Assembly (NCBI RefSeq): GCF_037042905.1
Contig: NC_087252.1
Span: 3,908,001-3,972,000, forward strand
Source of the DNA: Lytechinus pictus
Lineage: Eukaryota
Length of the DNA stretch: 64,000 nucleotides
Direction of reading: 5' to 3'
Numbering within the stretch: position 1 is the first letter of the stretch; every line of letters begins with the position of its first letter. Shown in pieces: positions 2,374 to 52,817 of this stretch. Under the pieces are notes generated by a model. It was not told the DNA's origin and did not search any database. It saw only the letters and a program-made list of their open reading frames with translations. The translations under genes were made by a program, and so were the position numbers.

Positions 2374-2433
2374 GTGAGGAGTTTACCTTCTGTATCTTCC
2401 ATGTCTTCGTGTGGAAATAAGATTATTAAATAA

Positions 2434-14907: not shown

Positions 14908-15910
14908 GTGAGTGTACCAGAATTATTAATTTTCTAGAGATATGAGCTATTGATGTTCAGTTTCTGCCAAAGATTTTGTAGTATTTGCGAAGAGTGTGAG
15001 AGACCGTCTGGAGTGGGTAGATGATGGTTGGTAGAAGATGATGCATAGTGCATGTACCCAAGAATTTCGTCTCGGACCCACCCGTAGAAGAACGAGTTGG
15101 ATGGACGTGGGTCTGGGCGGTGTCACCATCTTGGATATAAATCTTAAGACAATTCAGTTGAGTTGATGTTGATTTTTGTTGATGCCTGATATTGAGCTAA
15201 ATGAATTGAAACTTGAAATCAATAACATTTATAATTTGCAATATGATTTGTTAATTCAATTTTGTAGTTAAAATAATTGGATAGTACAGAACAAGCCGAG
15301 ATGTGAACCATGGAATTGAGATATTTCTACAGTAGATTTGTAGATTTTATTCAATCTGAAATGATAAAACAAAACAGCATATTTTGAGTCATCTCATCCT
15401 GAATTAAAACATGCACTTAAATATGAATATCTTGTGTAACCTGGTCTTGATGCATTTACATTTGTCCATCAAAGTATTACTAAATATTCTGACCAAGATT
15501 GACTTTCATTGTTTATAGTAAAAGCATGGATTAAGACTAATATAAACCAATTGAAAGTCTGAATGTAGCAGACAATATTATTTTCTATCAAAATCACTCC
15601 TTATATAAAAGGCATAAAAAATCAATGCCCAATTTTGGCAGGGCGCCAACAACGCATAGTTGAGTCCAACTATGCCGAAACAAATCCCTAATAGCTTTTA
15701 AAACTGGTTTTCTCTAAATTAAATGCACATGCAATTATTCATGAACCAAAACTAGTTTTGCCAGAAACTTATTTCTACCTCTTCAAAATACACTTCATGA
15801 ATTCACCAAATGTTCATGTATCAGACTCATGAACATGGTTTTGTATCCTTTTGTATAGATCTATATTTATGCACTTTCACCTCACAATGAGCAACTTGTC
15901 TTAAGCATAG

Positions 15911-18900
15911 TGTTGTAAAAATGTGAGTTGTTGATGTGGGTTAGCGATGTGATGGCACGAGATACGATATACGATGGCACGAGTGGTTAAACTTACAAGT
16001 ACAACACTGACAAGGGTTACGACTCACGAAACTCACAAATGGGTTAATTACCGACGGTACAAGACAGTGACAACAACTAATACTTACCTGACTCTTGCAC
16101 TGACGATTCCACACGGTAGATACAGATAACAGGTTTCTTCTAGACTTCTAATTAATACAGGTTGACCATGGCGCCGGGTGGGGATGCAGCTGTGTTGGTG
16201 CGTCCACACTCGTTGGCGTCTCGGGGTCTTCTCTCTCTGGTGTCTAGTCTGGATCTAATCTCTTGCACCAGCTTGTGTACGTGCTGTGCAACGCACGTAC
16301 ACGTAGCATGCGAAGGAGCATATAAAGGCTCCTCCAATCAGGACGCTCCTCGCATGCACACAGCACACACACAGACTTAACATACATGAACATAGGTCAA
16401 TACATAGACTAATACATATACAGGTACATGGCAAATTTACTACATTCCTCCCGGTTCCATCAGATTGCGACATATATTGACAAATCCATGAATTGGCTAT
16501 ATTGTGCAATCTCAATAGATATAAACAGATATGAAGAACTCTGACAGAAGAATGTAATATATGCCTAGGCTATATGATTAAAACTGATTAAATATATGAC
16601 ATCAATAAAATACCTCAAATACACAAAAAGTGTGATCTGAGGATATGAACTATTCTTAACTTGTTCATTAAAAAGATTGCTGGTCCAGCAAAATGAAACA
16701 TCTCATCACTTGAGACCAGCAAATATACACTTGGAGAAACAAGAACAAGTTAATGGTAAGTATTAATCTGGCCAGGCTGGCCCAGTCTTGTCTATGTATT
16801 GATACAAAGGTTATCTTCTCATTTAGTGCAAGTCTGAATGACTGAAAGAAGATATGTTCATCCTTCAAAGTGCACTACTTGACAAAGATTCTTAAAGTTG
16901 ACTCTTGGTCAGTGCTTTATATTAAATTGTATATTGTACTATTAAAATAATGACAATGGAATAAAGCCAATTTGGCTGGAGCTCTATTACCAATTAATAT
17001 AGGCCTGTACAATGTGACCTTTACAAATATGATATATAATTGGTCATATGTTTGAGCTCTTAAAAACATATAAAAATGTAAGGATAATTCAACCAGATCT
17101 GGTGCAAATAGATATAACAGCCTGGACCTGACATACATACATAGTATTTTCTCTTGAGAAAAAACTACTACTATTTCAACATCCTGTATGACAATATTTC
17201 CAAGGTTGTTTATAAAGCCTTTGCAAACAAGGTAAAAGATCTTTGGTTGAAATATCTATATCTTTATGAAATATAAAATATATACAAATATGATAAAAGA
17301 ATTATCTATTGCATAACCAGTGTATGCAACTATTACTTCATATGTCACCTGAAGAGGTAAAAACTATTGAAAAATAAGAAGTGTGCCCTTACCTTCAGTG
17401 ACTATAAAATTAATTATAATGCCTAACAGAAATTTCAATTGCAGGACTTTCAGCAACTGATCAAGGAGATATTACTCCATTCTTGGGGTGGTGGCCAGGG
17501 AGGAAGGAGCCAAGGACAAGATGTAAGAAATGGGTTGTTACCTAAACTACAAACATACCTCTGGTTCCACCACAAGAAAGAACTGAGGAATTCAAGGATA
17601 GAGAACTTAGGAGGGGTAATTCCCAAAAGTAATTGCACAAGATAACTTTGCCCATACTTGGCATCCTCAGTAGAGGCTCGACTGTCCTCTGACACAGTTA
17701 CAAAACTTACATTATCTACATCTAAGGTATTAACTGTAACATCACTTACACATGAAGTATCTACAGTTACATCATCTATACATGTGGTATTTACAGTTAC
17801 AGCATCTACACTAATGACATTATCAGAAACACAAGTATCTACATCTATTGTTAAACGTTCTGGACAGTTCCTCTTGAAGTGTCCAGATTTGTTACATGCA
17901 AAACAAACATCACGACAAGACAACTTGGATTCAGTGTCTTCTGTCGAAGGAGAATCTGTATGCCTATTCAGCTCTGGGACAGCAGTTACCGATCCCTGGA
18001 CTGAGGACTGGAAGGACTTCATCTGTGCCCCTGGAGCAGATTGAATATCAACCTTCTTCTCCAGATTGGGCACTCGGTCCTCCAGACTGTTCTGACCGGA
18101 GGACTGCTGAGCATTAGAGGCATGCCCGGAAACACCCATACGGTTAACTCTGGGATCCTCCTCGACAGTATCGTAAGACCTTTGTCTTGCATACGTTAGC
18201 CGATGCTGAAACCACCGAACTAAGTAAATGGCATCATCGAGATTCCGAGGACGTGATTTGATAGCGTATTTTCCCGCTTCATGGTCTAATAAACCCTGAC
18301 AAAACTTTTGCACTATTTGCCTCTCAAAAATCTCCTCAGGCAATCCGTCAAAGACGCGTGAAGCGTAGGATAGGACACGGTCGGCCCATTCCCCCTTTGT
18401 TTCGGTTGTTGCCTGCTGCGCAAAATCAAATTGCAATTGTGCGACAGGAAATTCTTTGGAAGCAAATCTTTGCTCAAGCTTCTTGATAACATCTGTATAG
18501 GGAATGTTTAGCTTGGAAGAAACAATAATTGATGCAAAATATTTGATTGCGCTTCCCTCAAGACAAAAGCAAAGTTCATTGAGGTGTTGGGCTTGACCCC
18601 AACCTCGATCTTCCGAATAAAGCTGGAAATTACGTATAAAAGTGTGCCAACATCCTCTACCATCGAAGGTCACGTACTTGGGCAACGAGGACACTCGCGG
18701 ACCAGTACACCCACGAGAATAAGATCTCAGGGCATCGCAACCTCGATCTAAGGACGGAAGCCTTGAATCTAGAGTAGATGAATGCCGAGATGATTTCAGT
18801 TCTTCTGACAATGATTTCATTTGAACAGCCATACAGTGCATCATCATTGCTATGTAAGCATCATCTTTGGAATGATCATTAGAAGTATGACAGGAAGATT

Positions 18901-19228
18901 GTGGATAAGAATCATGTTTATTTGTACTCTGAACCCTGCTGTTTGATCTGGGTTCACATTGAGTATAAGATGAATGTAAATGTTTGGAATCCTCACTAGT
19001 ATAGGGAGTACCAGGAGCATATCTAGAGTGATCAGTATATTGTGAATGATATCAGCTTGTGTACGTGCTGTGCAACGCACGTACACGTAGCATGCGAAGG
19101 AGCATATAAAGGCTCCTCCAATCAGGACGCTCCTCGCATGCACACAGCACACACACAGACTTAACATACATGAACATAGGTCAATACATAGACTAATACA
19201 TATACAGGTACATGGCAAATTTACTACA
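15911..19228 (-). mobile_element. Nested non-autonomous gag-only Ty3/Gypsy-type LTR element
   Basis: TGTTGTAAA...TTTACTACA termini, 4-bp TSD ATAG (15907-15910 and 19229-19232), intact 534-bp LTR 15911-16444, PPT-like tract 16445-16452, partial LTR 19053-19228 matching 16269-16444. Confidence 0.92.
17450..18847 (-). CDS. Retrotransposon Gag-like protein (465 aa) with CCHC knuckle and atypical C-terminal extension
   Basis: PKYVTFDG..W..F...F......GW capsid-like pattern, KLEQRF, and CFACNKSGHFKRNC. No protease, RT or integrase motif recognised downstream. Confidence 0.88.
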   Translation of the reverse strand: MMMHCMAVQMKSLSEELKSSRHSSTLDSRLPSLDRGCDALRSYSRGCTGPRVSSLPKYVTFDGRGCWHTFIRNFQLYSEDRGWGQAQHLNELCFCLEGSAIKYFASIIVSSKLNIPYTDVIKKLEQRFASKEFPVAQLQFDFAQQATTETKGEWADRVLSYASRVFDGLPEEIFERQIVQKFCQGLLDHEAGKYAIKSRPRNLDDAIYLVRWFQHRLTYARQRSYDTVEEDPRVNRMGVSGHASNAQQSSGQNSLEDRVPNLEKKVDIQSAPGAQMKSFQSSVQGSVTAVPELNRHTDSPSTEDTESKLSCRDVCFACNKSGHFKRNCPERLTIDVDTCVSDNVISVDAVTVNTTCIDDVTVDTSCVSDVTVNTLDVDNVSFVTVSEDSRASTEDAKYGQSYLVQLLLGITPPKFSILEFLSSFLWWNQRYVCSLGNNPFLTSCPWLLPPWPPPQEWSNISLISC

Positions 19229-20127
19229 ATAGATATGCTTTAAAATACAATATAATCTTTGTAATATGAAAATAACTCAGATATTTTGTCTCTTCATTCT
19301 CACTAAAAAAGAAGTCTTGTATTTTCATGCTTTTGCTTAGATTATGAATCCAAACCGAACTAAACTTCTTGGAAATGTTTATATTCACATTTTCCAACAT
19401 AACCAGTTGCTTCCAAAAAACTAAACAAAGCTTTCAACTGAAGCTTTTCATTAATTAAATATTCATATTTTAGACATCTTGAAACTTTTACTTTATAACA
19501 CAAATTTCAGTCATGTGCATTTCAGAAAATTGTGATCAGATTTCACATGAGCCTTTTGAGCCAAAAACTGTCTTCTAACTTCAACCTCTTTTCACGTGTA
19601 CATTTATAATGAATTTTTACGTCTGTTTTTCGTCAATAACTCTCTTTGACTTTCTTAACATAATTATATAATCAACACATTATCTCCCCTATTATCTGAT
19701 TAATCTACGAAACTTACTTCTATGACGGGACACAAATAAACATTGCTGAAATTTGGACATAAAAGGTGACGAAATGCAGCACCTCCGTAAACTCATGAAC
19801 GTGAAAAATCTGATGCTGAAGATAGCGCACTGCTGTAAATTGACGTGTTGACAAATTTGATATGGTATCTTAGAGATAGATCATTAAAGCAAACGTTATA
19901 ATAATCATATGGCATTTTAATCCAAAATAAATCCATTTTTTCCAAAGTTTAATCTTCTCTTCAAATTTGCCTTTCTGAAAGATTAAATTTTCTCATATAT
20001 TCGGCTTCTTACCAAAACATCCTCCCCACCCAATGAGGGGGTTGTCCTCATTACAAATTGAAACAAAAAAAAAACAGCAAAATTCGCGCTACAGATAAAT
20101 TGTATCAAAACTTACAATCCTTATGTA

Positions 20128-23100
20128 CTAATCTTCGTATCCCTCAACAGGGTAGATTACTGCTAACTTGGTTACTGGACGACGATATTCAGAGTTCATA
20201 GTCTTTACTTTCACATTCCGCACTTTACCGTCGTCACCTGGGTAAACTTCAATCACGCGAGCGATTGTCCACTTGCTGCGTACAGAGTTCATGTCGGCAA
20301 GCATTACTACATCCCCAACGCAGACATTGCGTCGATGAACATTCCACTTCCTTCTTGGAGCTAACAGTGGCAAGACATCCCTTGTCCACCGTTGCCAGAA
20401 AGAATATACAATGCGCTGAACCAGTTCCACTCTGTGTCTTGGATTTCGCGTCTTCAAGAATGGGCCTTGCGCTACGCTCCCCGAAGCTCGTCCTAGAAGC
20501 ATGTCGTTCGGTGAGATATAGCTGCCATCGTCTGGATCAGTTGGAAGTCGGCCGATAGGTCTTTGGTTGACAAGATTCGATACCTCCACTAAGCATGTAT
20601 ACAGTTCAAAAGGCGACAACACTTGATCACCTATCGCCCTTTTCAATGCATGCTTGCAGCTCTTGACCAAAGATTCGGCGCACCCGTTTTGATGTGGTGC
20701 CCCAGGAGTTACAAACTTCCATGTAGTGCCTCTCTCTGCACAAAAGTCCTTCAGCTCGTTGTCAGACATTCCGTCCGTCATCTTCCTTAGTTCTCGTTCT
20801 GCACCTATGAACTGGGTACCATTGTCGCTCATGATCATCGTTGGTTGTCCTCTGATAGAGAAGAAACGTCTTAGCACCTGAATGAATTCCATCGTACTAC
20901 AATCCACTGCCAGTTCCAGATGAACAGCACGTGTGTTCAAGCAGGTGAATATCACCCCATAATATTTTGATGTCTTGTTACGTCCCACTTTCACCGTTAG
21001 CGGCCCGAAATAATCACATGAAGTGAAGTGGAATGGTGGTGTACTTGGGGCCAATCTCTCTTTTGGTAGGTCTGACATCTGTTGGGTCTCTGTCTTGTGC
21101 TGAAACACTCTGCACTTGGTACATCTATACTTAACTGTCTTGGCAAGTTTGTGACCATGAAGAATCCAGTATTTCAGTCTTATCTTTGCCATGGTTGCAG
21201 CTACTCCACTGTGACTCGTCTCATGTACATGACGAGTAATCAGTCTTGAAACATGATGTCCATATGGTAGCAGGGCAGGATGCTTCTGCTCAAATGACGT
21301 AATCGCTTTATCTATCCTGCCTCCAACCCGTATGATACCGTAGTCATCAATGAATGGACTCAAAGACTTCAGCTCTCCTTTCTTGATCCGAGACTCCATG
21401 CCATTTTGTACATCTCTGATGATGTACTTTTCTCCGTCATCTAGTTCTGTGGGCGTAATCTCTATACTGGTCTCTTTTTCCTGATTCTGCCGTCTGGCCT
21501 TGAGTTTCTTTACAAACTTTATCACCAATGCTGCTACTCTGACCAGTTTCCTCCAGTTAGAGAACCTCTCGTAATCAATCAGATGATGACTCTGAGACAC
21601 ATTTAGAACTGTCTTCTCGTTACGCCTCTCCTTCTCAACATCAGGAAGGTCCTCACGAACCTTGACTTCGTCGGGCCAATCAGATGCTGACTTTTGAAGA
21701 AAGTCTGGACCCCGTTGCCATGACCCCACCAGCTCACTTGCCTTCAGTCCTCTTGATAACACATCTGCTATGTTGCTTTCTCCAGAGATGTGTCTCCATT
21801 TGCTGGGGTCTGTACTGGTCTGGATTTCTCCCACTCTTGTTGCAACAAACGTCTTGAAGGTTTTTGCCCTACCTCTAATCCACGAGAGGGCGATCGTACT
21901 GTCTGTCATTAAAATGACATCCTCAATTTCAATCCTCAGCTCCTCCAATATCGTCTTATATAACCTACTCGCAAGAACTGCAGCCTGAAGCTCAAGGCGT
22001 GGAACTGTTAGTGGCTTGAGTGGTGCCACTCGTGATTTTGCTGCCACAAATCTAGTCATGTAGCCTCCACCATCCATTTCCCACCTCAGGTATGCACACG
22101 CTCCAAAGGCATGCATCGAAGCATCACTGAAGATACAGAGCAGCGGCTTACCCACTGCCTCTTTCGGAGTCAGACATCTTTCAAATGTTACCTCCTTGAG
22201 CTCTTCCATTTCTTGAAAGAATCTTTTCCATTCCATTTGACATTCATCTGGAAGAACTGCATCCCAGTCATAGCCATTTTCCCATAGTTGCTGTAGTCCA
22301 ATTTTTGCCCGGATGACAAACGGTGCTGTATAGCCAATCGGATCGAAGATTCGGGCAACCTGACTGAGGATGATTCTCTTGGTTAGTCTCTTATCTATGA
22401 ACTTGTCAACTTTAACTCTGTAAGAGAACTCATCCTTCTCTCTATCCCAGAAGACTCCTAGCACCTTCTCCTCTGCTAGACTTTCCATCATAGTTTTCTC
22501 CATTTCGTTTGCCTCTGGACCTTTTAGCTGTATGTTGGAAGTCCAGCCTTTCACCTTAAACCCACCATCAGCAAGAATCATGTCAATGTCCTTGGTTAAG
22601 GTTTTAGCTTGCTCTATCGAATCTGTAGATGTGCAGATGTCATCCATGTATGTATCTCTTTTCAATACATCTGCAGCCTCTGGAGACTGAGCACGGCCTT
22701 CTTCTGCAGTGAGTCTCAGTGCTGTCTGCGCCATTGCTGGAGCCGGCTTATCTCCAAACGTCACGACTTGCATCACATACGTATCAGGCTTTCTGTTCAC
22801 TTGCAAATCTCTCCACAAAAACCTGTGTACGTGCTGATCAGACTCGGGTATCAGCACCCTGTGGTACATTTTTGAGATATCTGCACAAACTGCTACTGAC
22901 CTCTCCCGGAAACGTAGGATGACTCCAAACAAGTTATTTAAGAGGTCAGGGCCTTTCATCCAGAAGTCGTTGAGACACTTGCCAGCATACACTGAAGAGG
23001 AATTGAAGACAATTCTTATCGGTGTGCTCTTCTTTTCCGGTCGCAACACTGCATGATGAGGAATATAATGCACAGGGCCTTCATACGACTCCATTTCCTC

Positions 23101-24798
23101 AATTGTCATTTTCCTTGCGAAACCCATCTGTACCATTTCCTTAATTTGATTATCATAGGCTTTGGCATGCTCGGCATCCTTCAGCAACCTTTTCTCTGTA
23201 GCACAGAGCATTTTTTCCACCAGTACCTTGTTGTCTGGCAGTTCCTTTGGGTTTCTCTGCCATGGATATGGAACCAGCCACTGTCGTCCTTTCTTCTGAC
23301 AAGCCTTGATGATAAACTTCTGTTCATCTACCTCTTTATCTGGACAGGCCACTCCCATAGATTCTGTCGTCCAAAAATCCTGCAGATCAATGGGATTCCT
23401 GATTACTTGTACATTGAGTACGTTTCCACCCTTCTGACCTGGTTTACCACCAAACACCACCCAGCCTAGTGGCGTTCGCTTAGCAACTAGATGTCCTCTC
23501 TCTCTTGGCTTTCCATTCCCAAGATGAAGTTTTGCATAGTCGGCACCGATGAGTAGATCAATTGGTCCAGAACCTCTGTAGAGTTTGTCAAGATGGAAAA
23601 TCCTTGCTAACTCTCTAACATTAACACCTGTGATGTTATCGTTGATGACATCTAGTCCGATAGCTTGTACCACAATGACTTTATGGGTATCCAAAGACTC
23701 AAGCTTAACCCGATATAACTTGGAATCAGCAGTCTCTCTATCTCCGCCAACTTTTGTGATCACGACTTGGATTGGATCACCCTCGAGATTAAGCGTCTTT
23801 GCAATCTCCGTCCTGATGAGTGTCACTTGAGACCCAGAGTCCAACAAACAGTTACCAATGACCGCTCCCTTCGTACCTCGAACCTTGACTGACAGTATTG
23901 GTAACAGAGTCTCACTTGATCCGATACTTGCCACGTCCACTGTAGACTCCCTTTTTTCGATTGTTGAATGCAGCAAAGGATGATGATATGAGGGGCATTG
24001 GTCGCACTTCCTTCTTCGTCTACATGTGGTCATGCGGTGTTCCTTGCTGGCCCGCTTCAGACAGCTAAAGCACGCTCTGTTCGCCTTCATCAAGTCGTAC
24101 CTTTCTGGTTGGCTCATTCTGATAATCATTTGACACTTATCAATCCAGTGATCATTGGATTTACAGTGCCAACACTTAAAGTCCTGCTTACGAACCACAT
24201 CATTGCCTTTGTCTTGGTTCATAACTTGGTGTATGGATGCACCTTGCTTGGTCCTGTTATCTGACCTTCCTTCTCGAATGGATGCAGTCGCCCGAATGCG
24301 AGTCTGTAGTTCCTCGCTCATCCAGTCCATCAAGCCCTTTAAAGTGGGTGACCTCTGTAGACGTAACCAAATCTTACGATCTTCATTTGTAAGCTTCCGT
24401 TCTATCAACGCCAACATATGAGAATTGTTCATATCCTCTTCCTTATTTATCTGTTTCAGAGTGTTGTAACTCCTCCTAACTAATCCGGCAAACTCGATGA
24501 ACCTTGCATCCTCACCGTCCTTCAAGTTCTTGAACTTTGTGATGTCAGATATGATAGCATCGGCTAGATTCCTCGGATCACCGTACATGATATCAAGTTG
24601 CTCCCACGCTGCTTGATAGTCGGTTCCTATCCCTTGAATTATTTCCAGTGGTTTCCCTTGCAGGCTAGTACGCATAATTGTTATGCAATCCCTTTCGGCA
24701 TATCTGGTTTCGATGAGATGCTTGAAGTCGGACTTAAAAGTCTGATATTCTCTAATATCTCCTGAAAACCTGGGTAACTTAGGTTTTTCAACCTGCAC
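20128..24798 (-). CDS. BEL/Pao gag-pol polyprotein, main ORF (1556 aa)
   Basis: KLPRFSGD gag; CWHC..H....C, CFSC and CDQC..HHPLLH knuckles; LLDSGS protease; ADISKMY and YMDD reverse transcriptase; FSDAS RNase H; H..H..CTKC and CDYFGP / SDNGTQF / AES integrase. Confidence 0.96.
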   Translation of the reverse strand: MQVEKPKLPRFSGDIREYQTFKSDFKHLIETRYAERDCITIMRTSLQGKPLEIIQGIGTDYQAAWEQLDIMYGDPRNLADAIISDITKFKNLKDGEDARFIEFAGLVRRSYNTLKQINKEEDMNNSHMLALIERKLTNEDRKIWLRLQRSPTLKGLMDWMSEELQTRIRATASIREGRSDNRTKQGASIHQVMNQDKGNDVVRKQDFKCWHCKSNDHWIDKCQMIIRMSQPERYDLMKANRACFSCLKRASKEHRMTTCRRRRKCDQCPSYHHPLLHSTIEKRESTVDVASIGSSETLLPILSVKVRGTKGAVIGNCLLDSGSQVTLIRTEIAKTLNLEGDPIQVVITKVGGDRETADSKLYRVKLESLDTHKVIVVQAIGLDVINDNITGVNVRELARIFHLDKLYRGSGPIDLLIGADYAKLHLGNGKPRERGHLVAKRTPLGWVVFGGKPGQKGGNVLNVQVIRNPIDLQDFWTTESMGVACPDKEVDEQKFIIKACQKKGRQWLVPYPWQRNPKELPDNKVLVEKMLCATEKRLLKDAEHAKAYDNQIKEMVQMGFARKMTIEEMESYEGPVHYIPHHAVLRPEKKSTPIRIVFNSSSVYAGKCLNDFWMKGPDLLNNLFGVILRFRERSVAVCADISKMYHRVLIPESDQHVHRFLWRDLQVNRKPDTYVMQVVTFGDKPAPAMAQTALRLTAEEGRAQSPEAADVLKRDTYMDDICTSTDSIEQAKTLTKDIDMILADGGFKVKGWTSNIQLKGPEANEMEKTMMESLAEEKVLGVFWDREKDEFSYRVKVDKFIDKRLTKRIILSQVARIFDPIGYTAPFVIRAKIGLQQLWENGYDWDAVLPDECQMEWKRFFQEMEELKEVTFERCLTPKEAVGKPLLCIFSDASMHAFGACAYLRWEMDGGGYMTRFVAAKSRVAPLKPLTVPRLELQAAVLASRLYKTILEELRIEIEDVILMTDSTIALSWIRGRAKTFKTFVATRVGEIQTSTDPSKWRHISGESNIADVLSRGLKASELVGSWQRGPDFLQKSASDWPDEVKVREDLPDVEKERRNEKTVLNVSQSHHLIDYERFSNWRKLVRVAALVIKFVKKLKARRQNQEKETSIEITPTELDDGEKYIIRDVQNGMESRIKKGELKSLSPFIDDYGIIRVGGRIDKAITSFEQKHPALLPYGHHVSRLITRHVHETSHSGVAATMAKIRLKYWILHGHKLAKTVKYRCTKCRVFQHKTETQQMSDLPKERLAPSTPPFHFTSCDYFGPLTVKVGRNKTSKYYGVIFTCLNTRAVHLELAVDCSTMEFIQVLRRFFSIRGQPTMIMSDNGTQFIGAERELRKMTDGMSDNELKDFCAERGTTWKFVTPGAPHQNGCAESLVKSCKHALKRAIGDQVLSPFELYTCLVEVSNLVNQRPIGRLPTDPDDGSYISPNDMLLGRASGSVAQGPFLKTRNPRHRVELVQRIVYSFWQRWTRDVLPLLAPRRKWNVHRRNVCVGDVVMLADMNSVRSKWTIARVIEVYPGDDGKVRNVKVKTMNSEYRRPVTKLAVIYPVEGYED

Positions 24799-25118
24799 CT
24801 TCCTCCAGAGCTGATATTTCCAATGCTATTGTTTTCGAGGTAGTCACAAACCTTCGCTTTCACTTGCATGAAGTTATTCATGCAATCTTCTATCCATGCC
24901 TGCTCTGATTCATATGCCGAATCATCAAGAAGCTCACAGTATACGTCATGCTTCTCTTCCAGATCCTTGTAGCATTTCTGACATTCCTGAAAGCCCTCAT
25001 CAACCTCTATGCTGGATCTTTCACTGTCCATCAGGGCCGTAACTTGATTCAAAGTCCTTGTGAACTTCCCCTTTGCCGACCTCCGCTTCACCTTCAGTTC
25101 GCCTGCTCTTTCAGCCAT
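24799..25118 (-). CDS. N-terminal gag segment (MAERAGELKVKRRSAKGKFTR...) separated from the main ORF by a 1-nt frame break
   Basis: ATG lies 48 bp after the 5' LTR and gives a helical BEL-gag-like N-terminus. One extra base at ...GGA GGA A|GG TGC joins it to KVQVEKPKLP. Confidence 0.8.
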
Positions 25119-25166
25119 CTTGTCCTTCTTGTACTATTCCCGGAGTATGCGGAGAAATTGAATTTA

Positions 25167-26586
25167 TGGATAGTACAGAACAAGCCGAGATGTGAACCAT
25201 GGAATTGAGATATTTCTACAGTAGATTTGTAGATTTTATTCAATCTGAAATGATAAAACAAAACAGCATATTTTGAGTCATCTCATCCTGAATTAAAACA
25301 TGCACTTAAATATGAATATCTTGTGTAACCTGGTCTTGATGCATTTACATTTGTCCATCAAAGTATTACTAAATATTCTGACCAAGATTGACTTTCATTG
25401 TTTATAGTAAAAGCATGGATTAAGACTAATATAAACCAATTGAAAGTCTGAATGTAGCAGACAATATTATTTTCTATCAAAATCACTCCTTATATAAAAG
25501 GCATAAAAAATCAATGCCCAATTTTGGCAGGGCGCCAACAACGCATAGTTGAGTCCAACTATGCCGAAACAAATCCCTAATAGCTTTTAAAACTGGTTTT
25601 CTCTAAATTAAATGCACATGCAATTATTCATGAACCAAAACTAGTTTTGCCAGAAACTTATTTCTACCTCTTCAAAATACACTTCATGAATTCACCAAAT
25701 GTTCATGTATCAGACTCATGAACATGGTTTTGTATCCTTTTGTATAGATCTATATTTATGCACTTTCACCTCACAATGAGCAACTTGTCTTAAGCATAGA
25801 TATGCTTTAAAATACAATATAATCTTTGTAATATGAAAATAACTCAGATATTTTGTCTCTTCATTCTCACTAAAAAAGAAGTCTTGTATTTTCATGCTTT
25901 TGCTTAGATTATGAATCCAAACCGAACTAAACTTCTTGGAAATGTTTATATTCACATTTTCCAACATAACCAGTTGCTTCCAAAAAACTAAACAAAGCTT
26001 TCAACTGAAGCTTTTCATTAATTAAATATTCATATTTTAGACATCTTGAAACTTTTACTTTATAACACAAATTTCAGTCATGTGCATTTCAGAAAATTGT
26101 GATCAGATTTCACATGAGCCTTTTGAGCCAAAAACTGTCTTCTAACTTCAACCTCTTTTCACGTGTACATTTATAATGAATTTTTACGTCTGTTTTTCGT
26201 CAATAACTCTCTTTGACTTTCTTAACATAATTATATAATCAACACATTATCTCCCCTATTATCTGATTAATCTACGAAACTTACTTCTATGACGGGACAC
26301 AAATAAACATTGCTGAAATTTGGACATAAAAGGTGACGAAATGCAGCACCTCCGTAAACTCATGAACGTGAAAAATCTGATGCTGAAGATAGCGCACTGC
26401 TGTAAATTGACGTGTTGACAAATTTGATATGGTATCTTAGAGATAGATCATTAAAGCAAACGTTATAATAATCATATGGCATTTTAATCCAAAATAAATC
26501 CATTTTTTCCAAAGTTTAATCTTCTCTTCAAATTTGCCTTTCTGAAAGATTAAATTTTCTCATATATTCGGCTTCTTACCAAAACA
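25167..26586 (-). repeat. BEL 5' LTR (1420 bp)
   Basis: Matches 15278-15910 plus 19233-20019 with no mismatch found by eye. Minus-strand TATATAA at 25490-25496 and AATAAA about 70 bp from the LTR end. Confidence 0.95.
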
Positions 26587-28042: not shown

Positions 28043-30457
28043 TGACCATGGATGCCCTAACATATAGCCTCGATGTCTATCTCATTGGTCTTGGAGATTT
28101 TTTATGCAATTGATGTTTTAATTTTTTTATATTTGTGTAGAAACCTGCTTTACTCTTAATAATGATATCGGAATATAAGGCCTGGCCTGTCATCATCATC
28201 GTCATTATTGTAGATACATGTAATTATCATTGTCCAATTTGCAAGAACTTAATTTCTGGTTTCTTATTATTTCCTATTTTCTCATGTTTTTCTATGTACA
28301 TGTATTTTTATATCATTTGTACTTACAATAATTTTGTAAATTATTCTGCGAAAAATAATCTAAAATCTATATTAGTTTTATGTGGTTTTAAATCACTTGT
28401 TCTGTGACGATTATGTCAAAGAGCTTGCCTTACTGCAACTGTATAAACCCTCCCAAATTATCAATATCATTTGAAGAATTGATATCTGGTTATTAAAATG
28501 ATGGTTTTTAGTCACTTACATGTAAGTAATTTTAACAATTTTTTTGTAAAAAAAGATCACATTCTTGTGAAAATAAGTATGATGCCAGTGGATTTATCCA
28601 ACAATAATATGAGGAACCACTGCTATTCATTTTATTTTTGCTTTTGGGGACTCTGGGGCTGAAAGTAAATTATACAAAAAAATCAGTAAAATTCACTGAG
28701 CAAAAAAATAGATGAAAAAAAATATAATAAACAAATAATGAAGTTTATTGAATTTTAAAGTTGAGCAATATCTTTTGAAAACAGTATGCATAGTATGCAC
28801 ATCATCATGAATATTCATTAGGTGGGCTGTTGATGTCACACAACATCCCAATTTTTTTTTCTTATTTTATTATATAAAATCATAATTATATATTTTCATA
28901 CATGTGTGTACATGTAACTGTATATGGTATGTCTATATTAAAGTTGCAGCAATGTTTATAATGCATTAAATCAGTTGTCATTCCAATTTCTTTTTATAGT
29001 TTTTTTGAGGAAAAATTGAATGAAAAAGCAAAATTTCATGTGATATATGATGTCATATCCACTCTTCTGTATTTAATTTTATTACATCATCAGATTTGCT
29101 CAAATGAAGCCATGCGTAGAACTGTTTCGCAAAATAATCAAAATGTTTCAAATGTCATAGTTCTTTGTTATTCCATGTGCGATTTTGATATAATTTTCAA
29201 TGTTGTAGGAGTGGGCTATACATGGGTCAAAAATACTTTTTTTTGTAATTTCAATATGACAACAGTTTTTTTTTATTCCTTGTAATGTATCTCAACATGA
29301 AATGACAATATTTTTTGTCTCGGGTCCGAGAAAAAAGTGTGCCGGGCCAAAATCCAAAATGGCCGCCAAAACCCCCCAAAATCACAGCTTTGGCCACAAT
29401 TTCTTTATTTGGTGGTCTTTTTCTCTGGTTTTCTATCCCCTTTCCTTTCGAGGCCTCCATCACTTTCAAGCTCCAAGCTTAAGATGGAGGTCTCCCACAT
29501 TTCTATATATATATCAGGGTTCAGTAATTAAAGAAAATGTATATATAGATATAATTTTCACAGTACAGTTGATATTTTATAATGATTTATGTTTTTTTTA
29601 TTATACTTGTATATACTTTGTTTTTGTTTTGAAATGTGGAAATAAAATAAATCAAATCAAATTTTCCCATTTTTGTTGCCTTTTTTCAGCCAAAAAGTAG
29701 GTTTTATCATCCTGGGGTTCTGGGATATTAGATGGTACGAGCTATATTGCTTTTATTCCTCTACTTTGGGTTTTACGGATATTTGTGAAATATCTTAAAT
29801 TAAATTAAAAAATGTCAATTATCCATTGGGGTTATACAGTATACATGTACAATGTACTGTACATACATACTGCACTGCATATTAATGCATTAGCTACCAT
29901 GACAGATAACAAGGCCTGTATAAACTATAGTGTCATAGAAATGAGCTCTCAGGTTTAGAATTAGATGCCTCAGAAATTGAAGATATGTTTTGTCTCAGAA
30001 ATTGAGGACATGTTTTGTCAAATATGCTAATTCAGGGGGCAGAGAGAGGTAATTAACCCCACATGGCATTTACACTGTAGCTATTCTGGGCCCCGTTGCA
30101 TAAAACATTTACCATTATGTTCACTTAATGGTAACTTGCATGGAATCCTTGATTCTGATTGGCTGTTGATCAGCGTTACCATGATAGTTACCTGACCCCA
30201 TAAACATAGGCCAGTTTAATAGACAACACAACCAGGTAAAAAAAAGCCTCCAAATGAAGAAGATACATGGCTAAAAATGTGATATACATGTACATTATAT
30301 GTGATATTTATGTGCAATTTACATTGCTGGTTTCATCATGTACTGTACATCAGCTGACAAGCAATCAAATTCACAATCTAATTCTAAACCTTTGAAACCT
30401 ATTTCTTTTCTATGACACTATATACAGGACTTCACTTGTCATATGCCATGGTGGTCA

Positions 30458-31041
30458 TAGCCTCTTGTCGAGGCCCTGTCGGCTGCTTTCCGAGCGAACA
30501 TGGCAAAGCAAGGGAGAGAGCGAAGCAGAGCGCCGCGAGACAGGGCCTCTTGACATCTGACCCGAATTTCACCGACTTTCTTTTGTTTTTTATTGTTTTT
30601 ACCAATTCACCGACCAAAAACTGGTCGGTGAAAATCATCCAATGAGAGCGTGAGCTGCTATGACGTCATATTAAATATTCATGAGCTCATCTTGAATGGC
30701 GACCCTTGGATTCTTGACGAAGAGTGACGACGAAATATCAAAGAGCGCTGAATATGACTCTAAAATGCTGAATATTGACCAATTTAAGGATTTGCAAGTC
30801 GATGAAATTAACTCTGCACTGAAAGGACGAGATGTCTTTGTAAATCTACCCACAGGATATGGAAAAAATGTAATATTTCATGCGATTCCACCGGTCGAAC
30901 CGGGGCGTCGATTATCGATCTCCGCTGTGCAGTGCAGTGAGGGAAGCTGGGGTGGAGTTGCTGGGAGTTGACTCGAGTCTGACCAGCGGCTGAGCAGTAT
31001 CTCCCGGGAAGTTTTGGGGCGGTGATGGGTCTGTTACGGCC

Positions 31042-31072
<31 letters not shown>

Positions 31073-31389
31073 CCACTACTTGTAGCATTTTGCTGGTTAT
31101 ATCCCCTTTAGTGCCCCGCAATTAAATGAATCCCCTGCAGAATAATGTACTACTATACTATATAGTATTCTGAACCCAAAACGAAACAGCTCTGACATTT
31201 CATTGGTTTACTCGGTGACCGGTAATATCATGACTCATGTATATTCATTAGGAAGACGTTGCTCATGAATATATAATTCAGTTCAGATGTCAAGAAGCCC
31301 TGGCTCGCGCCAGGCCTAATTCGCTTTGCGAATTAGGGAATCCCTCGCTTCGCTCGGGAAGCAGCCGCCAGGGCCTCGACAAGGGGCTA
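30458..31389 (+). mobile_element. Non-autonomous AcademH-like DNA transposon, copy 1 (932 bp)
   Basis: TGGTGGTCA|tagcctcttgtcgaggccctg ... cagggcctcgacaaggggcta|TGGTGGTCA, with an internal RecQ-helicase fragment. Confidence 0.88.
30696..30971 (+). pseudogene. Truncated RecQ-like superfamily-2 helicase N-terminus carried by the transposon
   Basis: FKDLQVDEINSALKGRDVFVNLPTGYGKNVIF matches RecQ motif 0 plus Walker A. Similarity ends after about 65 aa. Confidence 0.85.
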
Positions 31390-33408
31390 TGGTGGTCAAG
31401 GCATGGATGCACGCAGTGTAGTATGTACAGTGCATTGTATACCGTATAGCCCCTATGGATAAATTACATTTTCTTTTATTTGATAAGATATATTTCGCAA
31501 ATATCCATAAACCCAAATTAAGAGGAATAAAAACAATATAGCTATATAAGCTGCCTGCTACTGTTCAACTGGTATCGTATAATATCCAAGAACCACATGA
31601 CAATGAAACCTACTTTTTAGCTGAAAAAAGGGCTTTAAAAATTGGTAAATTTAAGTAAAATCACCTTATAACTCTACAAATAATTATTTAGAAGTACTAA
31701 TCTTAGGAAAAACAAATTGCCTGCCCCCCAAAAACATATGAATAGACACCAAAACCAGAGAAAAAGACCATCAAATAAAAAAGTTGTGGCCGAAAATGTG
31801 ATTTTGGGGGGATTTGGCGGCCATTTTGGATTTTGGCCCGGCACACTTTTTTCTCGGACCCGAGACAAAAAAATATTGTCATTTCATGTTGAGATAAGGT
31901 AACAGGAACACAAAAAAACTGTTGCCACAGTAAAACCAAAAATCACCAATTTATAGCCCACTCCTACATGTAGTTGTACTTTGTCTTAATTATTTTTTCT
32001 CATATTATTTTCAGCCTAGAGTACAAGTGCTGTGCACACATAGACTTCTTTATTATAGCCTTCTTTCCTAGACTTAAAAAAGGATCAAAGGTTTTTGGTA
32101 TCGATGTTGGGCATATAATACAGTGGATTATGATTTTGATTTGCTACTATTTCTACTAGAAATGTTAGGCAATATTGGACTTTTGAATTTAACAAAAATA
32201 AAACCATTGCGGAATTCCCGCTCATAATAGGTATACAGTGTAGGCCTATAGGCCTAATACTGTAGTTTAACTCATATGCACATCTTGATAATGTTTGTGA
32301 TAATAGTCTGGGCCTACAGTGTATATGTAGGGCCTACATGTATTGTTTGGACTGTCCATCTGGCACCATTTTGACCCATTAGTTGACCATTGGACCAAAA
32401 CAGAAAAAACAGTGATTTTTTTTCTTCAAAACAGCACTAGGTCTACAGAGCACAATAAAAATCATTTGAAAAGAATTTTGTGGTCAGGTTATAGCTCTTT
32501 GTATTAATTTATACTGGACTGTTATGTCTGATGCTACTGTTATTCAAAACGTCATCGTTGTAAAAAAAAAATGCAGTTTCTAGATTTTATTAGATTAGAT
32601 TTAAAAATGTTCAAAGTTAAAAATTCCCTTGAACAATATACGGTACTATTAATTTGTAGAAGTAGGGCCGCCAAGCTAAACATTGCTTTAAAGAGAAAGT
32701 TTCATATTAAAAAAAAAGAATAGTCCATGGAGCTATAAGACACAGATAGCTCCATAATGTAGGCCTGCATATACATGTGCACATACATGTACATGTAGAG
32801 GCTGCCTAATGAATTTTGGGAGAATTATGAAAGAAAGAATCGTGCCAGAAGAAAGTGAACAAGAAAAAAGAAAAGAAAAGGTAAATATAACAAGAATAGA
32901 ATTTAAAAGAGTAAACAAGAAAAGAAAAGAAAAAACTTTCAGAAAAGAGGAGACAGAAAGTAAAAAGAATCGGAGACAGTGGGATCTGTCAAAATAAGAT
33001 GTGTATTGTGTACAATGTGTAATTTGGTGAGAATGAGGTGCTAAGGAGGTATGAATGAAAACTGTGGGTGGCATTTCACAAGTAGCCTAGTCTTTGTCTT
33101 CAGACCCTGATAGATATCTCAAACCTGTTGTTTGTTTGGCAAACCAGCTAAACATCAAATCGTAAGAAAAGATTGGAGTATGTGAAGGTGTTTTTGTGTA
33201 TGGTCAGCTACTATGTGATATTGGGATCATAAACTCCTCTTGGAAAGAAAAGCAGGATGGAGATTGACAGGGAAAATACCAATGCTCCTTTGTTTCTTTT
33301 TTTTAGTAGAATAAATATTTCAAGAGGGGTGTTTGTGGGCAGATAAATGTGGACACTCATGTGAGTGAGTGTGTAGATCTATGTGTATGTGTGTGACAGT
33401 GAAGAAGG

Positions 33409-35166: not shown

Positions 35167-35574
35167 TTAACCTTTTTTCCATGCAGGTATTTTTATCACT
35201 TTTTGAAAATGTAGAAGTAGATTTGCAATGTGCATGAATAAATATTTTTTCTCATTCCATTCATGAGAAGGTGTTTTATGTATAACAGCAAAATAATATG
35301 CAGATATTTTTATTTTGAACAAATGCCCTATCAAAATTATATTCTGATGTAAAATTTGTAAATTTATCCAATAAAACAGAGTTTTTATCTTTAACACAAC
35401 CATTTTGGGGCACATGTATTATTAATCTTGTACCGTAATGATTAGGAGATTTTAGGAGATTTACCCAAATTTATAAAGATTTTCAGGTTTTGAACACTAT
35501 TATACGATTTGTGTTTTATTTTTTTAATTTCTTTGATCTGCTTTTTGGATTTGCATTTTTTTATGCTTTCTTAA

Positions 35575-36177
35575 AGGCCAAGTCCACCCCAGATAAATGT
35601 TGATTTGAATGAATAGAGAAAAATCAAACTAGCAGAACGCTGAAAATTTCATCAAAATCGAATGTAGAATAAGAAAGTTATAGCATTTTAAAGTTTCCCT
35701 TATTTTTCACAAAACAGTGATATACACAAGTCAGTGACATACAGATGAGTCGGTCGATGATGTCTATCACTCACTATTTCTTTTGTTTTTTATTGTTTGA
35801 ATAATACAATATTTCATTTTTAACAGATTTGAAAATAAGGACCAACTTGACTGAACCATATGATATTAAATAGTGCTAATTCCACATATTCAGGGAGGAA
35901 TTAATTGTTGTTTCATTTGACAATGAGGGGAAAATTCGAATATTTCATATTTCATAGAATAAAATACAAAAGAAATAGTGAGTGGATGACGTCATCAGTC
36001 TCCTCATTTGCATACCGACCAGGATGTGCATATAACTGTTTTGTGAAATTAAGCGAAACTTTAAAATATCATAACTTTCTTATTTTACATCCGATTTTGA
36101 TGAAATTTTCAGTGTTATGCTTGTTTGATATTTCTCTTTTTATTCAAATCAACTTTTTGTTGGGATGGACTTGTCCT
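35575..36177. mobile_element. Family-A TTAA MITE, opposite orientation to 2434-3025
   Basis: ttaa|aggccaagtccacccc ... gggatggacttgtcct|ttaa. Confidence 0.85.
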
Positions 36178-36689
36178 TTAATCAGCAGGCCTAAATCCTT
36201 CTTTATATCATATCATAAAAACTAGGTCATTCCTATCCCATCATGCATTGGACATGATGGAGTTAATTACTTCCTGTAATGTGAGCATTCTTGTTGAAAC
36301 TTGGGTGGGTGGGGGTCAAAGGTCAAGTGCAAGGCGGGGTAGGACTGGTTGTCAAGTTTAAAGTCATCTCTTGTCATGAAGGTCCACACACATGTGCATG
36401 CCACACACATTGATTTCTCGAGACTATGCTATATATTACCCCCTTGATTCGGTTGGTTTTAAAATAAGGCAAAACATGAATTTAGCCATAATTTTCCTTT
36501 TCAATAAACCCACATGCTTAGGAGAGGTTATAGCTGATAGTTCCCTCCAAAGTTCTTGTAGTTGGAAATATGTATTAACATTTTGTGTGTGTGAAAAAAA
36601 GAGTACCTCGGTAATTTGGCATCATCATTATTATGATAATTCTTATTATGATTATGATAATTGTTATGATTATTATTCATTTATTTGTT

Positions 36690-46716: not shown

Positions 46717-46861
46717 TTATATGCCTTGGCCTACTTGGTTGATGGTGATTTTTTACGTTGATTGCTATGAAAGCATGAATGCAGAGGACTGATGGCTTTA
46801 TGTCCTCTTCTAGGGATGTAGTAATGAGGTTACCAGAGGGCACGAGTGGTCTTGTGGTTAA

Positions 46862-49698
46862 AGGACAAGTCCACCCCAACAAAAAGTTGATTTGAATAAA
46901 AATAGAAAAATCAAACAAGCATAACACTGAAAATTTCATCAAAATTGGATGTAAAATAAGAAAGTTATGACATTTTAAAGTTTCGCTTAATTGCACAAAA
47001 CAGTTATAATATATGCACATCCTGGTCGGTATGCAAATGAGGAGACTGATGACATCACCCACTCACACTTTCTTTTGTATTTTATTGTATGAAATATGAA
47101 ATATTTCAATTTTCTCCTTATTGTCATGAGAAACAAGGTTTCATTTCTCCATGAACATGTGGAATTACTATTGTTTGAACATATTGTGGTCAGGCGCGTA
47201 GCCAGGGGGGGGCGGTGGGGGCGGTCGCCCCCCCAAAAACGTCCCCAAAAAGAAAAAAAAAGAAGGGAAAAAAGAGAGGAAAAAAGGAAAAGGGAAGGGA
47301 GGAAAGGGAAGAAAGGTAGCTTTGTCGGTTTTTTTTTTCTTTTTATTCTTTATTCTTTTCTCAAAAGAGAAACTCCTTCACTCTTGCTTTAAATTTATAT
47401 ATGAATTTTGCTTCCGCGCTGCGCGCGGCTAAATGACAATATTGAAGTTCTCCATTGTTTCCCCACCCTTTCTCTAACTCTGCTTTTCCACCTCAGCTAT
47501 ATGTGTTTCTTGCCAGTTAAAGTTCAAATGTATAGATTAGGGCATGGAATTAGAGTAAGGTTAGGCCGAAGTATATGAAGTTATCTTTTTTTTTATTGAT
47601 TGCGCAACTTCTGGTCGGGTCGGCTCCGGGCGGGTAAAATCTTTATATCAATTTCTGCCGTCACCTCCATAAAGTCAACTTCTCCCGCTTTTCAGGTCAT
47701 TACTAAACAACCATAATTTGGGGCAAACAGGTTCCTAATTTAAAAAGAGGAATGTATAAAATTCGTGTCGTACTAAATAAAAAAGTACAATATTTTTTTC
47801 AAATTCTATTAATCTTCATGTTATTTCCCTGCACATTCATCTCCTGTCCTGTTTTGCGCCCTCAGTTTGAAATTTTGAATGACACTTAGGTTTCTTTATA
47901 ATTCAAAATGAAGCGCTTCAGGATAAGTCAAAGAAATTAGGCATCCTTTTTTATAATATTTTAATAAATCACAGAAGTTTCAACTTTTTGCGCACTATTT
48001 TCCTTGTAATGAAGTTCAATAATCTTAGGAAATCAATTGAATTAGAGCCGATGGGGTATTAGATATATCTGCATTTGATGAAACGTCCGCCCTTTGAAAT
48101 TTCAGAGTTTTATTGTTCTGCGCGGGGAGGAATATCTTCCTCCCGGCATATACACTTCTTCTCCTCTGTTTTGCGAGTTAAAGATATGCACTGTCGCTAA
48201 ATTGTTTGTAATCAAATCTGATATTTCCAAGGGAAGTATTCAATATATCTTTGAGAATACCCTTTTCTCGGGACCCTTTTCATGGCAAAAAAAATTGATA
48301 AAACGCTTTAGCTTCCGCGCTTCGCGCGGGGTTATAATGATTTTAATTTCCTCCATTGTATTCCTTTTTGTATATGAAGTTATCTTTTTTTTTATTGATC
48401 GCGCAACTTCTGGTCGGGTCGGCTCCGGGCGGGTAAAATCTTTATATCAATTTCTGCCGTCACCTCCATAAAGTCAACTTCTCCCGCTTTTCAGGTCATT
48501 ACTAAACAACCATAATTTGGGGCAAACAGGTTCCTAATTTAAAAAGAGGAATGTATAAAATTTGTGTCGTATTAAATAAAAAAGTACAATATTTTTTTCA
48601 AATTCTATTAATCTTCATGTTATTTCCCTGCACATTCATCTCCTGTCCTGTTTTGCGCCCTCAGTTTGAAATTTTGAATGACACTTAGGTTTCTTTATAA
48701 TTCAAAATGAAGCGCTTCAGGATAAGTCAAAGAAATTAGGCATCCTTTTTTATATTATTTTAATAAATCACAGAAGTTTCAACTTTTTGCGCACTATTTT
48801 CCTTGTAATGAAGTTCAATAATCTTAGGAAATCAATTGAATTAGAGCCGATGGGGTATTAGATATATCTGCATTTGATGAAACGTCCGCCCTTTGAAATT
48901 TCAGAGTTTTATTGTTCTGCGCGGGGAGGAATATCTTCCTCCCGGCATATACACTTCTTCTCCTCTGTTTTGCGAGTTAAAGATATGCACTGTCGCTAAA
49001 TTGTTTGTAATCAAATCTGATATTTCCAAGGGAAGTATTCAATATATCTTTGAGAATACCCTTTTCTCGGGACCCTTTTCATGGCAAAAAAATTGATAAA
49101 ACGCATTAGCTTCCGCGCTTCGCGCGGGGTTATAATGATTTTAATTTCCTCCATTGTATTCCTTTTTGTGCGTTCACAATCACTTTTGAAAACAAGGTTT
49201 AAAATCACAATAAAGTCAACTGAATTGGAGCTGATATAGGTCTAGAGACAAGAGAGACGGCTCCTTTTCATTTTAATTTATGAAACACCAAAAGCTTCGC
49301 GCTTCGCAAAGGGAGGGGGAAACTCCCCCTCCCTGCACCCACCCCCTAGGGAGCGCGCTTCGCGCGCTCTGTAAGTGTTGGCACGCTTTACCGCCCCCTC
49401 CAAAATGAAATCCTGGCTACGCGGTTGATTGTGGTCCAACAAAGAGGGACCTTATTGTCAAATCTGTGAAAATTGAAATATTGTATAATTCAAACAATAA
49501 AAAACAAAAGAAATAGTGAGTGAGTGACATCATCAACTCTCTCATTTGCATATCACTGTTTGGTGAAAAATAAGCGAAACTTTAAAATGTCATAACTTTC
49601 TTATTTTACATCCAATTTTGATGAAATTTTCACTGTTATGCTTGTTTGATTTATCTCTATTGATTCAAATCAACATTTTTCTGGGCTGGACTTGCCCT
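46862..49698. mobile_element. Family-A TTAA MITE split by a hAT-like insertion
   Basis: 46862-47190 and 49428-49698 rejoin to the 2434-3025 family sequence. Confidence 0.8.
47191..49427. mobile_element. hAT-like non-autonomous element with 8-bp TSD ATTGTGGT and an internal 799-bp tandem duplication
   Basis: attgtggt|caggcgcgtagccagg ... cctggctacgcggttg|attgtggt. Units start at 47571 and 48370. Confidence 0.88.
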
Positions 49699-51440: not shown

Positions 51441-52054
51441 AGGGATGCTCCAGGCTGAAAATATTACAGTGTATAGCTAAATAAATAGAGTAATATTCAC
51501 AGAGCAAAATGCTGAAAATTTCATCAAAATCAGATAACAAATAACAAAGTTATTGAATTTTAAAGATTTGCATAATTCAGGTGAAACAGTTCTACGCATG
51601 TCTTCATGAATATTAATTAGGTGGGCTGATGATGTCACATCCCCACTTTCCCTTTTCTTATGTTATTACATGAAATCATGATTGTTTTTTTTTTTTTTTC
51701 ATAATTTATGTGCAAGTGATGTGTCTCCATTATTATTAAATAGTTGCAGCAAGAAATAACTAATGCATTTAATCAGTTGTCAATCAAATTGTTTAAGTTC
51801 TTGGCAGGAAATTATTGAATAAACCTAATTTCATATAATAAAATACAAAAGAACAAGTGGGGATATGACATCATCAGCCCACCTAATGAACATTCATGAA
51901 GACATGCTTAGAACTGTTTCACCGGAATAATGCAAATCTTTGAAATTCAATAACTGCTATTTGTTGTCCGATTTTGATAAAATTTTCAGCATTTTGCTCT
52001 GTTCATTTTATTATATTTATTGAGGTATAAATATCTTCAGCCTGGACCATCCCT
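51441..52054. mobile_element. Family-B Kolobok-like MITE (most intact copy)
   Basis: ttaa|agggatgctccaggctgaa ... ttcagcctggaccatccct|ttca, with long inverted arms. Confidence 0.85.
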
Positions 52055-52103
52055 TTCAAAAAGAAGTAGCGTAATGAGCAAGGTCAGAATCCCACAAAGG
52101 AGT

Positions 52104-52482: not shown

Positions 52483-52817
52483 TATAAAGCTACTACTATT
52501 CCTTGCTTCTGTATGTGCTACATATCCATCATGAGAAACTAATAAACATAGAACCTTTAAAGGGTAATTGTTGTTGAAAGAAATCCATTTTGTTCACCCA
52601 ATTGTCTAGAAAGATATGCATTTCTCTCACAGCCCCAAAATTTCAGAATGCATAGCTCTTTTGTAGCTCTGAAAAGTAGCTTATGTCTTTTGGTTATTAA
52701 GAGACATTTCATGAAGTAAAAACCCTTTTGCACTCGGAGCCAATTTCTGGAACATACCCGTGTGTGTGAGTATGTCTGGACCGGTTCAGTTGATCAGTCT
52801 GAAAGGCGACTATGAAC

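Follow-up and report, generated by a model that had tools for sequence, protein, structure and literature searches.

Deleted P elements such as KP, together with Ds/Ac and dSpm, are non-autonomous internal-deletion derivatives of transposons with terminal inverted repeats (TIRs), and KP is a truncated repressor. In the Academ superfamily, the TIRs begin with TAG. MULE-type elements make target-site duplications of about 9 bp, and the Kolobok duplication is short and of the TTAA type. RecQ helicases are described by named motifs, among them motif 0, Walker A, and motif Ia. AcademH is reportedly one of the Academ lineages, as set out in Kojima 2020 (Mob DNA 11:15). According to the accessible part of PMC10045372, AcademH elements carry a helicase and make duplications of 9 or 10 bp, and AcademX elements make duplications of 3 or 4 bp and carry a nuclease instead of a helicase. 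KolobokH is presented in the accessible part of PMC9587614 as a fungal lineage that carries RecQ. For the filing of non-autonomous elements, Repbase uses the same duplication length and terminal positions 1 to 11 with at most one mismatch (PMC4455052, accessible part). The accessible parts of PMC10799480, PMC5751038, and PMC10294476 address distribution rather than definitions.

Here, a 64,000-nt stretch of Lytechinus pictus DNA (GCF_037042905.1, NC_087252.1:3,908,001-3,972,000, forward strand) was analyzed. The whole stretch is called the window, and all positions refer to it. The window contains a 932-bp element, copy 1, which is an ordinary entry of a known, little-studied transposon group. 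Very probably, it arose by internal deletion from an AcademH-like cut-and-paste DNA transposon and is non-autonomous, moved in trans, with a helicase piece that is decaying. The features are as follows.

30376 to 31652, no strand: older repeat arm interrupted by copy 1 (30376-30457 plus 31399-31652), with an inverted partner at 29659-29966
30449 to 30457, plus strand: left copy of the 9-bp target-site duplication, TGGTGGTCA
30458 to 31389, plus strand: copy 1, 932 bp, very probably a non-autonomous AcademH-like DNA transposon, with TAG...CTA ends, a 9-bp duplication, and loose ends with mixed flanks
30458 to 30568, plus strand: left TIR, bipartite, with an internal inverted repeat (30470-30480 with 30539-30549)
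30606 to 30632, no strand: perfect 11-bp hairpin formed by two TCACCGA subterminal motifs, of which the element has four (the others at 30569 and, on the minus strand, 31212-31218)
30639 to 30682, plus strand: putative promoter-like motifs 5' of the helicase start (CCAAT at 30639, TGACGTCA at 30661, ATATTCAT at 30675)
30696 to 30971, plus strand: 91-aa open reading frame (ORF), helicase in codons 1-65 only (30696-30890), with a motif 0-like segment and Walker A (GKN)
30891 to 31083, plus strand: decayed Ser/Thr-rich segment, presumed helicase linker by comparison with proteins P0002, P0007, and P0013, in which a frameshift, stops, and (AGT)n repeats (about 31042-31073) occur
31084 to 31113, plus strand: helicase motif Ia remnant, SILLVISPLV, in a frame other than that of the ORF; broken further in copy 2 by 2- and 4-nt insertions
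31153 to 31203, minus strand: frame of 16 codons that opens with M-K-CxxC and lies 187 nt from the right end, a possible transposase start
31200 to 31272, minus strand: inward-facing right-end motif set (ATATTCAT twice, TGAGTCA, TCACCGA, CCAATGA)
31275 to 31389, minus strand: right TIR, bipartite, with an internal inverted repeat (31367-31377 with 31294-31304) whose inner arm lies 4 nt farther from the end than at the left
31390 to 31398, plus strand: right copy of the 9-bp target-site duplication, TGGTGGTCA, exact; empty-site forms occur in the sequencing runs
52818 to 53751, minus strand: copy 2, 934 bp, with an open 91-aa frame and its own exact 9-bp duplication (52809-52817 and 53752-53760)

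As in AcademH, both copies have 9-bp duplications and TIRs beginning with TAG, a remnant of an SF2/RecQ-like helicase gene (codons 1-65 and motif Ia) is present, and related complete elements have a second, transposase-like gene. Unlike AcademH, copy 1 is only 932 bp long and has no recognizable transposase, and its helicase breaks off after motif Ia and contains a frameshift. The 9-bp duplications and the helicase remnant set it apart from AcademX. In contrast to KolobokH, its helicase starts next to the terminus and its 9-bp duplications are variable. Like Ds/Ac, dSpm, and KP, copy 1 keeps both ends with subterminal repeated motifs as well as a 5' stub left from a parental gene, and it would have moved in trans; unlike them, its stub comes from an accessory helicase rather than a transposase, and the repressor role known for KP finds no support here. 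The motif 0-like segment, Walker A, and motif Ia are shared with cellular RecQ proteins (BLM, RECQL1, RECQL5, and bacterial RecQ), whereas the separate clade (100/100 against RECQL5, BLM, and bacterial rows), the long Ser/Thr-rich insert before motif Ia, and the change of the Walker A S/T to N in both copies are not. The best reading of the sequence is that copy 1 behaves as an AcademH derivative, the direct parent of which was not found in the searches given below.

In copy 1, TAG lies at 30458 and CTA finishes at 31389; the TAG...CTA ends and the exact 9-bp duplication described in an earlier note on this DNA were both present. The 21-bp TIR of that note is an inverted repeat as described, but its true length is about 110 bp and it is bipartite. 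The first 41 nt matched at 38 positions between the two ends, and the second block of 35 nt was 89% identical. Left and right ends were offset by 4 nt in copy 1 and by 5 nt in copy 2, less than a helical turn of about 10 nt. Among 13 relatives (from the best 80 of 384 metagenome loci, see below), 7 had equal ends and L053 had an offset of 8 nt, whereas the remainder could not be compared. Most ends, both here and in the relatives, contain an internal inverted repeat that begins at end position 12 to 15; in several of the relatives, this repeat scored no higher than shuffles. When the whole window was scanned for TAG...CTA pairs with a TIR and a 9-bp duplication, exactly two matches were obtained, copies 1 and 2. 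The two copies were 93.2% alike over 950 columns, and their 9-bp duplications differed in sequence, each being exact.

Four of the 24 listed public runs (X1, X3, X10, and the RNA run X24) were compared with the element. In X24, 22 reads left it exactly at 30458 and 41 exactly at 31389, with mixed flanks (agreement of 0.50 and 0.47). In X10, 34 and 42 contigs did so, again with mixed flanks (agreement of 0.37 and 0.38), and X1 gave 5 and 3 contigs. A single X3 contig left the element, at the right end. Copy 1 is thus confirmed as a genuine transposable element present in many copies. Forms with an empty site were found in one X3 contig, in X10 with a joint of 30432 to 31386, and in 19 X24 reads. 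With copy 1 removed, its flanks align across the junction to 29659-29966 (70% over 351 columns). Because the flank is itself a repeat, the empty-site forms may represent paralogous sites and not alleles of the copy 1 locus. A mini-form of about 173 bp, nearly the two ends alone (joint 30542 to 31302), was found in six X24 reads, two X1 contigs, and one X10 contig. All six X24 reads of this form fell in one strand class.

The ORF predicted in the earlier note, with RecQ motif 0 and Walker A over 91 aa, does open with ATGGCG at 30696, but the helicase accounts for only 65 codons and its Walker A reads GKN. The ATG is base 239 of the element, i.e., 238 bp from the left end, and the RecQ similarity ends at residue 65. 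In Pfam, the peptide matched DEAD below the cut-off (E=0.0012, residues 33-62). In a search of 1.84 billion protein representatives, 168 passed E 0.001, and the best reached 74% identity and 75.6 bits, compared with 25.4 bits for BLM and 22.8 bits for RECQ1 in the PDB; these scores come from the same program run on different libraries. An Atlas search with the stub returned generic short DEAD clusters and nothing else, and a word-index protein search with residues 1-66 confirmed none of 15 candidates among longer proteins, which is weak evidence.

Downstream of residue 65, the helicase continues out of frame. The motif Ia remnant after the Ser/Thr run resembles P0013 (E=2e-5) and P0007 (E=2e-4). 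A profile of 38 relatives scored 4.4 bits on it, against a maximum of 3.6 in 300 shuffles, which is modest alone, and strand and order are correct. The same profile did not pick up motif Ia in copy 2, which carries two small insertions that disrupt this motif further. Because motif Ia persists 3' in another frame, the ORF stop arises via a frameshift. Because the similarity resumes at 31084-31113, the helicase remnant extends over about 420 bp, and the last 26 codons of the ORF are the product of that frameshift. The (AGT)n microsatellite probably belongs to the helicase linker. Over this linker (30891-31041), copies 1 and 2 differ at 1 of 151 positions, and over codons 1-65 at 12 of 195. Most of the differences specific to copy 1 in these codons were absent from the runs compared, and a mosaic origin or conversion between copies 1 and 2 is possible. 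In X10, the depth over 30894-30985 dropped about tenfold.

Walker A is TGYGKN, with GKN in both copies; in 150 relatives, the residue after the Walker A lysine was S in 132, T in 3, N in 1, and another residue in 6, with no match in 8. Further conserved residues were altered, A to D at 21 in copy 1 and V to D at 47 in copy 2. Between the copies, 8 non-synonymous and 2 synonymous codons differ in codons 1-65, over 154 and 41 sites, and 2 to 3 of 12 substitutions are synonymous (neutral expectation, 3.0). The 91-aa frame is open in both copies, for which the chance is about 0.60 x 0.17, roughly 0.1, and this speaks mildly for a retained frame. Three in-frame ATG-stop minicistrons precede the helicase ATG, which has a weak T at -3. 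In X10, related copies had lost parts of the ORF or its ATG (joints 30623-30782 and 30731-30841, one contig each), and two X10 contigs lacked 5 nt at 30927. Comparison of the copies and relatives thus points to neutral decay of the helicase piece, which would be carried along as a passenger. The frameshifted tail, the neutral substitutions, the minicistrons, and the T at -3 speak against the earlier proposal that each insertion delivers a short peptide as a function.

The same proposal included a portable promoter. CCAAT (30639), the motif TGACGTCA (30661), and the ttcaccgacca/tggtcggtgaa hairpin were all present as the earlier note had described. In shuffles of the left 238 nt, the hairpin arose in 0 of 500, the CRE gave P=0.002, and two CCAAT gave P=0.08, for motifs that were picked after being seen. 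The CRE (TGACGTCA, 30661) and CCAAT are kept in both copies. Among eight relatives, the CRE was found in L049 only, at both ends, and CCAAT on the helicase side in three. The left end contains three copies of the 7-mer TCACCGA and the right end one, and CCAATGA lies 182 nt from the left end and 184 nt from the right. The hairpin was considered as part of a promoter and set aside, because it is built from a 7-mer present at both ends and would fit better as subterminal binding sites. The right-end set probably represents the upstream region of the parent's transposase gene. Together, the left and right sets would fit either two convergent parental genes or shared binding sites.

The RNA run X24 gave a weak signal in both strand classes. 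Six in 100 of the run was read, and 443 of 8.7 million records were placed on the element. Only 9 of the 443 reads were at least 99% alike, so the X24 reads come from other copies. The first-mate-minus depth was 3 to 6 over 30480-30617, 12 to 29 over 30710-31169 (13 to 29 with the skipped-repeat bin set aside), and 2 over 31216-31307, and the signal ended about 50 to 90 nt past the ATTAAA at 31121. The other strand class had a depth of 25 to 46 at both ends and continued into varied flanks, as expected of host read-through. A sharp transcript start or end was not seen over the element in X24, nor any sign of transcription passing from the element into host genes. If the usual stranded-library convention applies, this one run indicates that some copies make weak sense RNA confined within the element.

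A working promoter with a translated peptide that matters, either as a portable host promoter or as a truncated repressor of the parent, is therefore an unlikely reading of copy 1. The CRE and CCAAT retained in both copies, the open 91-aa frame, and the rise of first-mate-minus depth inside the element, which in a usual stranded library means sense RNA, would all agree with it. Against it, the peak strand class fades before the right TIR with no read-out into the flanks, which argues against a promoter exported to neighboring genes, while the opposite class equals or exceeds it in depth at both ends and extends into varied flanks. Transcripts lack a sharp start, reads at least 99% alike are few (9 of 443), and the peptide is burdened by neutral substitutions, a Walker A without S/T, altered conserved residues, copies deleted through the ORF or ATG, upstream minicistrons, and a weak -3 base. 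The portable promoter is thus unproven, its motifs facing inward and the strand class of the helicase remnant being at background before the right TIR.

In a further reading, both inward-facing promoter modules of the parent were kept, and the many copies would make overlapping sense and antisense RNA over the helicase 5' region. The derivative would then spread by itself and silence the autonomous family, by way of double-stranded or small RNA or of a peptide with a dead Walker A. This reading draws on the CCAATGA at 182/184 nt, the bZIP sites, and the ATATTCAT motifs on both ends, and we regard it as improbable.

Relatives of the helicase form a family in which the RecQ core directly follows the Met, with a median of 51.5 residues to Walker A (142 of 150). 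Full-length relatives have about 580 aa and sea-urchin names. A midpoint-rooted tree of 46 rows was built, in which the stubs cover 33% of the columns; its cellular side consists of 16 rows (including RECQL5, BLM twice, and three bacterial; RECQL1, WRN, and RECQL4 are absent). Both stubs paired with P0002 and P0006 (92/83). They fell within a 30-row clade that includes nine helicases of elements bounded by target-site duplications, with the 16 cellular rows opposite (100/100). Grouping of the peptide with cellular RECQL genes, which the earlier note had named, together with the lack of a larger element sharing the termini, as a sign of gene capture, was thus not seen, the stub standing apart from the RECQL5, BLM, and bacterial rows. 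Proteins P0001, P0002, P0006, and P0007, which are the closest, come without genomic context.

Metagenomes were scanned with the family profile; 384 of 485 candidates were confirmed, and the best 80 of these 384 were examined. Within these 80, TAG...CTA elements with an exact 9-bp duplication were found at 15 of the 72 loci longer than 2 kb, representing 13 distinct insertions of 1.4 to 10.2 kb, all of which begin with TAG. Where the locus was long enough for a whole element, 11 of 30 had these ends and duplication, and a strict scan found no such pair in the remaining 19. An opposite-strand match to the transposase-like frames of L019 was present in 28 of the 30. The L019 frames are DUF6589, which may be the Academ transposase. 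The DUF6589 frames of the relatives have invariant GD, WH, and acidic residues; their profiles had no match in the PDB, and the predicted fold of the transposase-like protein had a pLDDT of 33.6. In the 7 of 13 relatives where an ATG was found, the helicase started 164 to 246 nt from the end. The earlier claim of an AcademH-like deletion derivative with a helicase gene about 240 bp from the end is supported, the distance here being 238 bp. Loci with the full architecture are distant, the best stub match among the best 80 being 58.5 bits. Under the Repbase rule, the closest terminus, that of L040, shows 2 differences in 11 positions and the others show 3 to 5; these are distant families and not curated entries. 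Two short derivatives with helicase stubs, L040:3457-4823 (1367 bp) and L049:1639-3661 (2023 bp), were found in other hosts, so the layout recurs. L049 also retains a frame on the opposite strand that starts with CxxC, and each of its 103-bp TIRs contains a CRE.

These data leave very little room for gene capture, in which an unrelated TIR element (MULE/Pack-MULE-like) took the 5' end of a cellular RecQ gene. That reading would account for a parent not being found, for the duplication length, which MULE-type elements share, and for cellular helicases as the weak Pfam and PDB matches. However, the stub nests among transposon-borne helicases, has the short N-terminus of its relatives (Walker A after a median of 51.5 residues) and their long linker ahead of motif Ia, and starts at the same distance from the TAG end as in complete elements. 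Nor does the stub look like an internal fragment of a cellular gene, as judged from the tree against RECQL5, BLM, and bacterial rows and from 75.6 versus 25.4 bits. Least probable of all is a KolobokH derivative or a chance pairing of repeats, because copy 2 and the many flanks exclude chance pairing, a short TTAA-type duplication does not fit two different 9-bp duplications, and, although some Kolobok lineages carry a RecQ helicase, the accessible part of PMC9587614 places KolobokH in fungi only, with one rhodophyte Kolobok family also carrying RecQ.

For the AcademH-like derivative, a parent was sought in several collections. The 21-nt terminus had no matches in viral and metagenome contigs. 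The 16-nt terminus matched 120 loci in prokaryote genomes, none extending beyond 40 nt at 80%, and these were therefore chance matches. The helicase profile confirmed 0 of 68 candidates in viral contigs. None of the viral, metagenome, or prokaryote collections yielded a larger element that shares exactly these termini. When frames of copy 1 were compared with 80 loci (the best 80 of 384) for a transposase remnant, matches covered the helicase part only. The M-K-CxxC frame resembles the start found in 12 of 13 relatives, and the same pattern also occurs in a second frame of L032 and L034. A 14-nt word (window 31187-31200, minus strand) was seen by eye both in the right subterminal region and in the L032/L034 leader upstream of the transposase-like frame; this is probably chance. 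No description of the 932-bp family was found in the literature covered, most subscription papers and Repbase Reports lying outside that scope, and the family may already be listed in the Kojima 2020 supplement and Repbase.

The parent would have been an element of 5 to 10 kb. Its RecQ-like helicase gene would have started about 240 bp from the left end, and a transposase gene on the opposite strand would have lain at the right end. An internal deletion would have kept the left 660 bp or so (TIR, upstream region, and helicase 5' part to motif Ia) and about 270 bp at the right. The remnant would then have been moved in trans by the parent's proteins, which presumably recognize the ends of about 110 bp and leave 9-bp duplications. 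The helicase piece would be a passenger decaying neutrally, with the 91-aa ORF as a frameshift product.

Copy 1 thus provides a catalogue entry for a multi-copy, non-autonomous AcademH-like family in an animal. Its helicase stub would be a by-product of a gene start about 200 bp from the end, and such stubs would explain why invertebrate annotations contain stray gene calls named "RecQ-like" or "WRN-like". The form of about 173 bp would mark the minimal ends needed for movement and should be useful for asking why these transposons carry a helicase. The family would gain greater weight only if its copies silenced the parent or drove host transcripts.

Other repeats were observed in the window. 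Older inverted repeats are nested around copy 1 (29204-31968), with 29204-29432 paired to 31751-31968 at 85%. A BEL/Pao-like LTR retrotransposon, labeled from its ORF, lies on the minus strand at 15278-26586, with a 1565-aa open frame at 20128-24825 and LTRs of about 1420 bp. Its 100% identical LTR parts and 5-bp flanking duplication indicate a very young element. One of its LTRs is split by a 3.3-kb insertion (about 15911-19228) that begins with TG and ends with CA. This insertion has identical 176-bp direct repeats (16269-16444 and 19053-19228), an apparent 4-bp duplication, and a 533-aa gag-like frame (17450-19051). A tandem duplication of about 800 bp with 99% identity occupies 47571-49169. 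Palindromic (foldback) repeats of about 600 bp, belonging to related families, occur at 2431-3029, 35571-36181, 46855-47190, 49429-49698, and 51439-52056.
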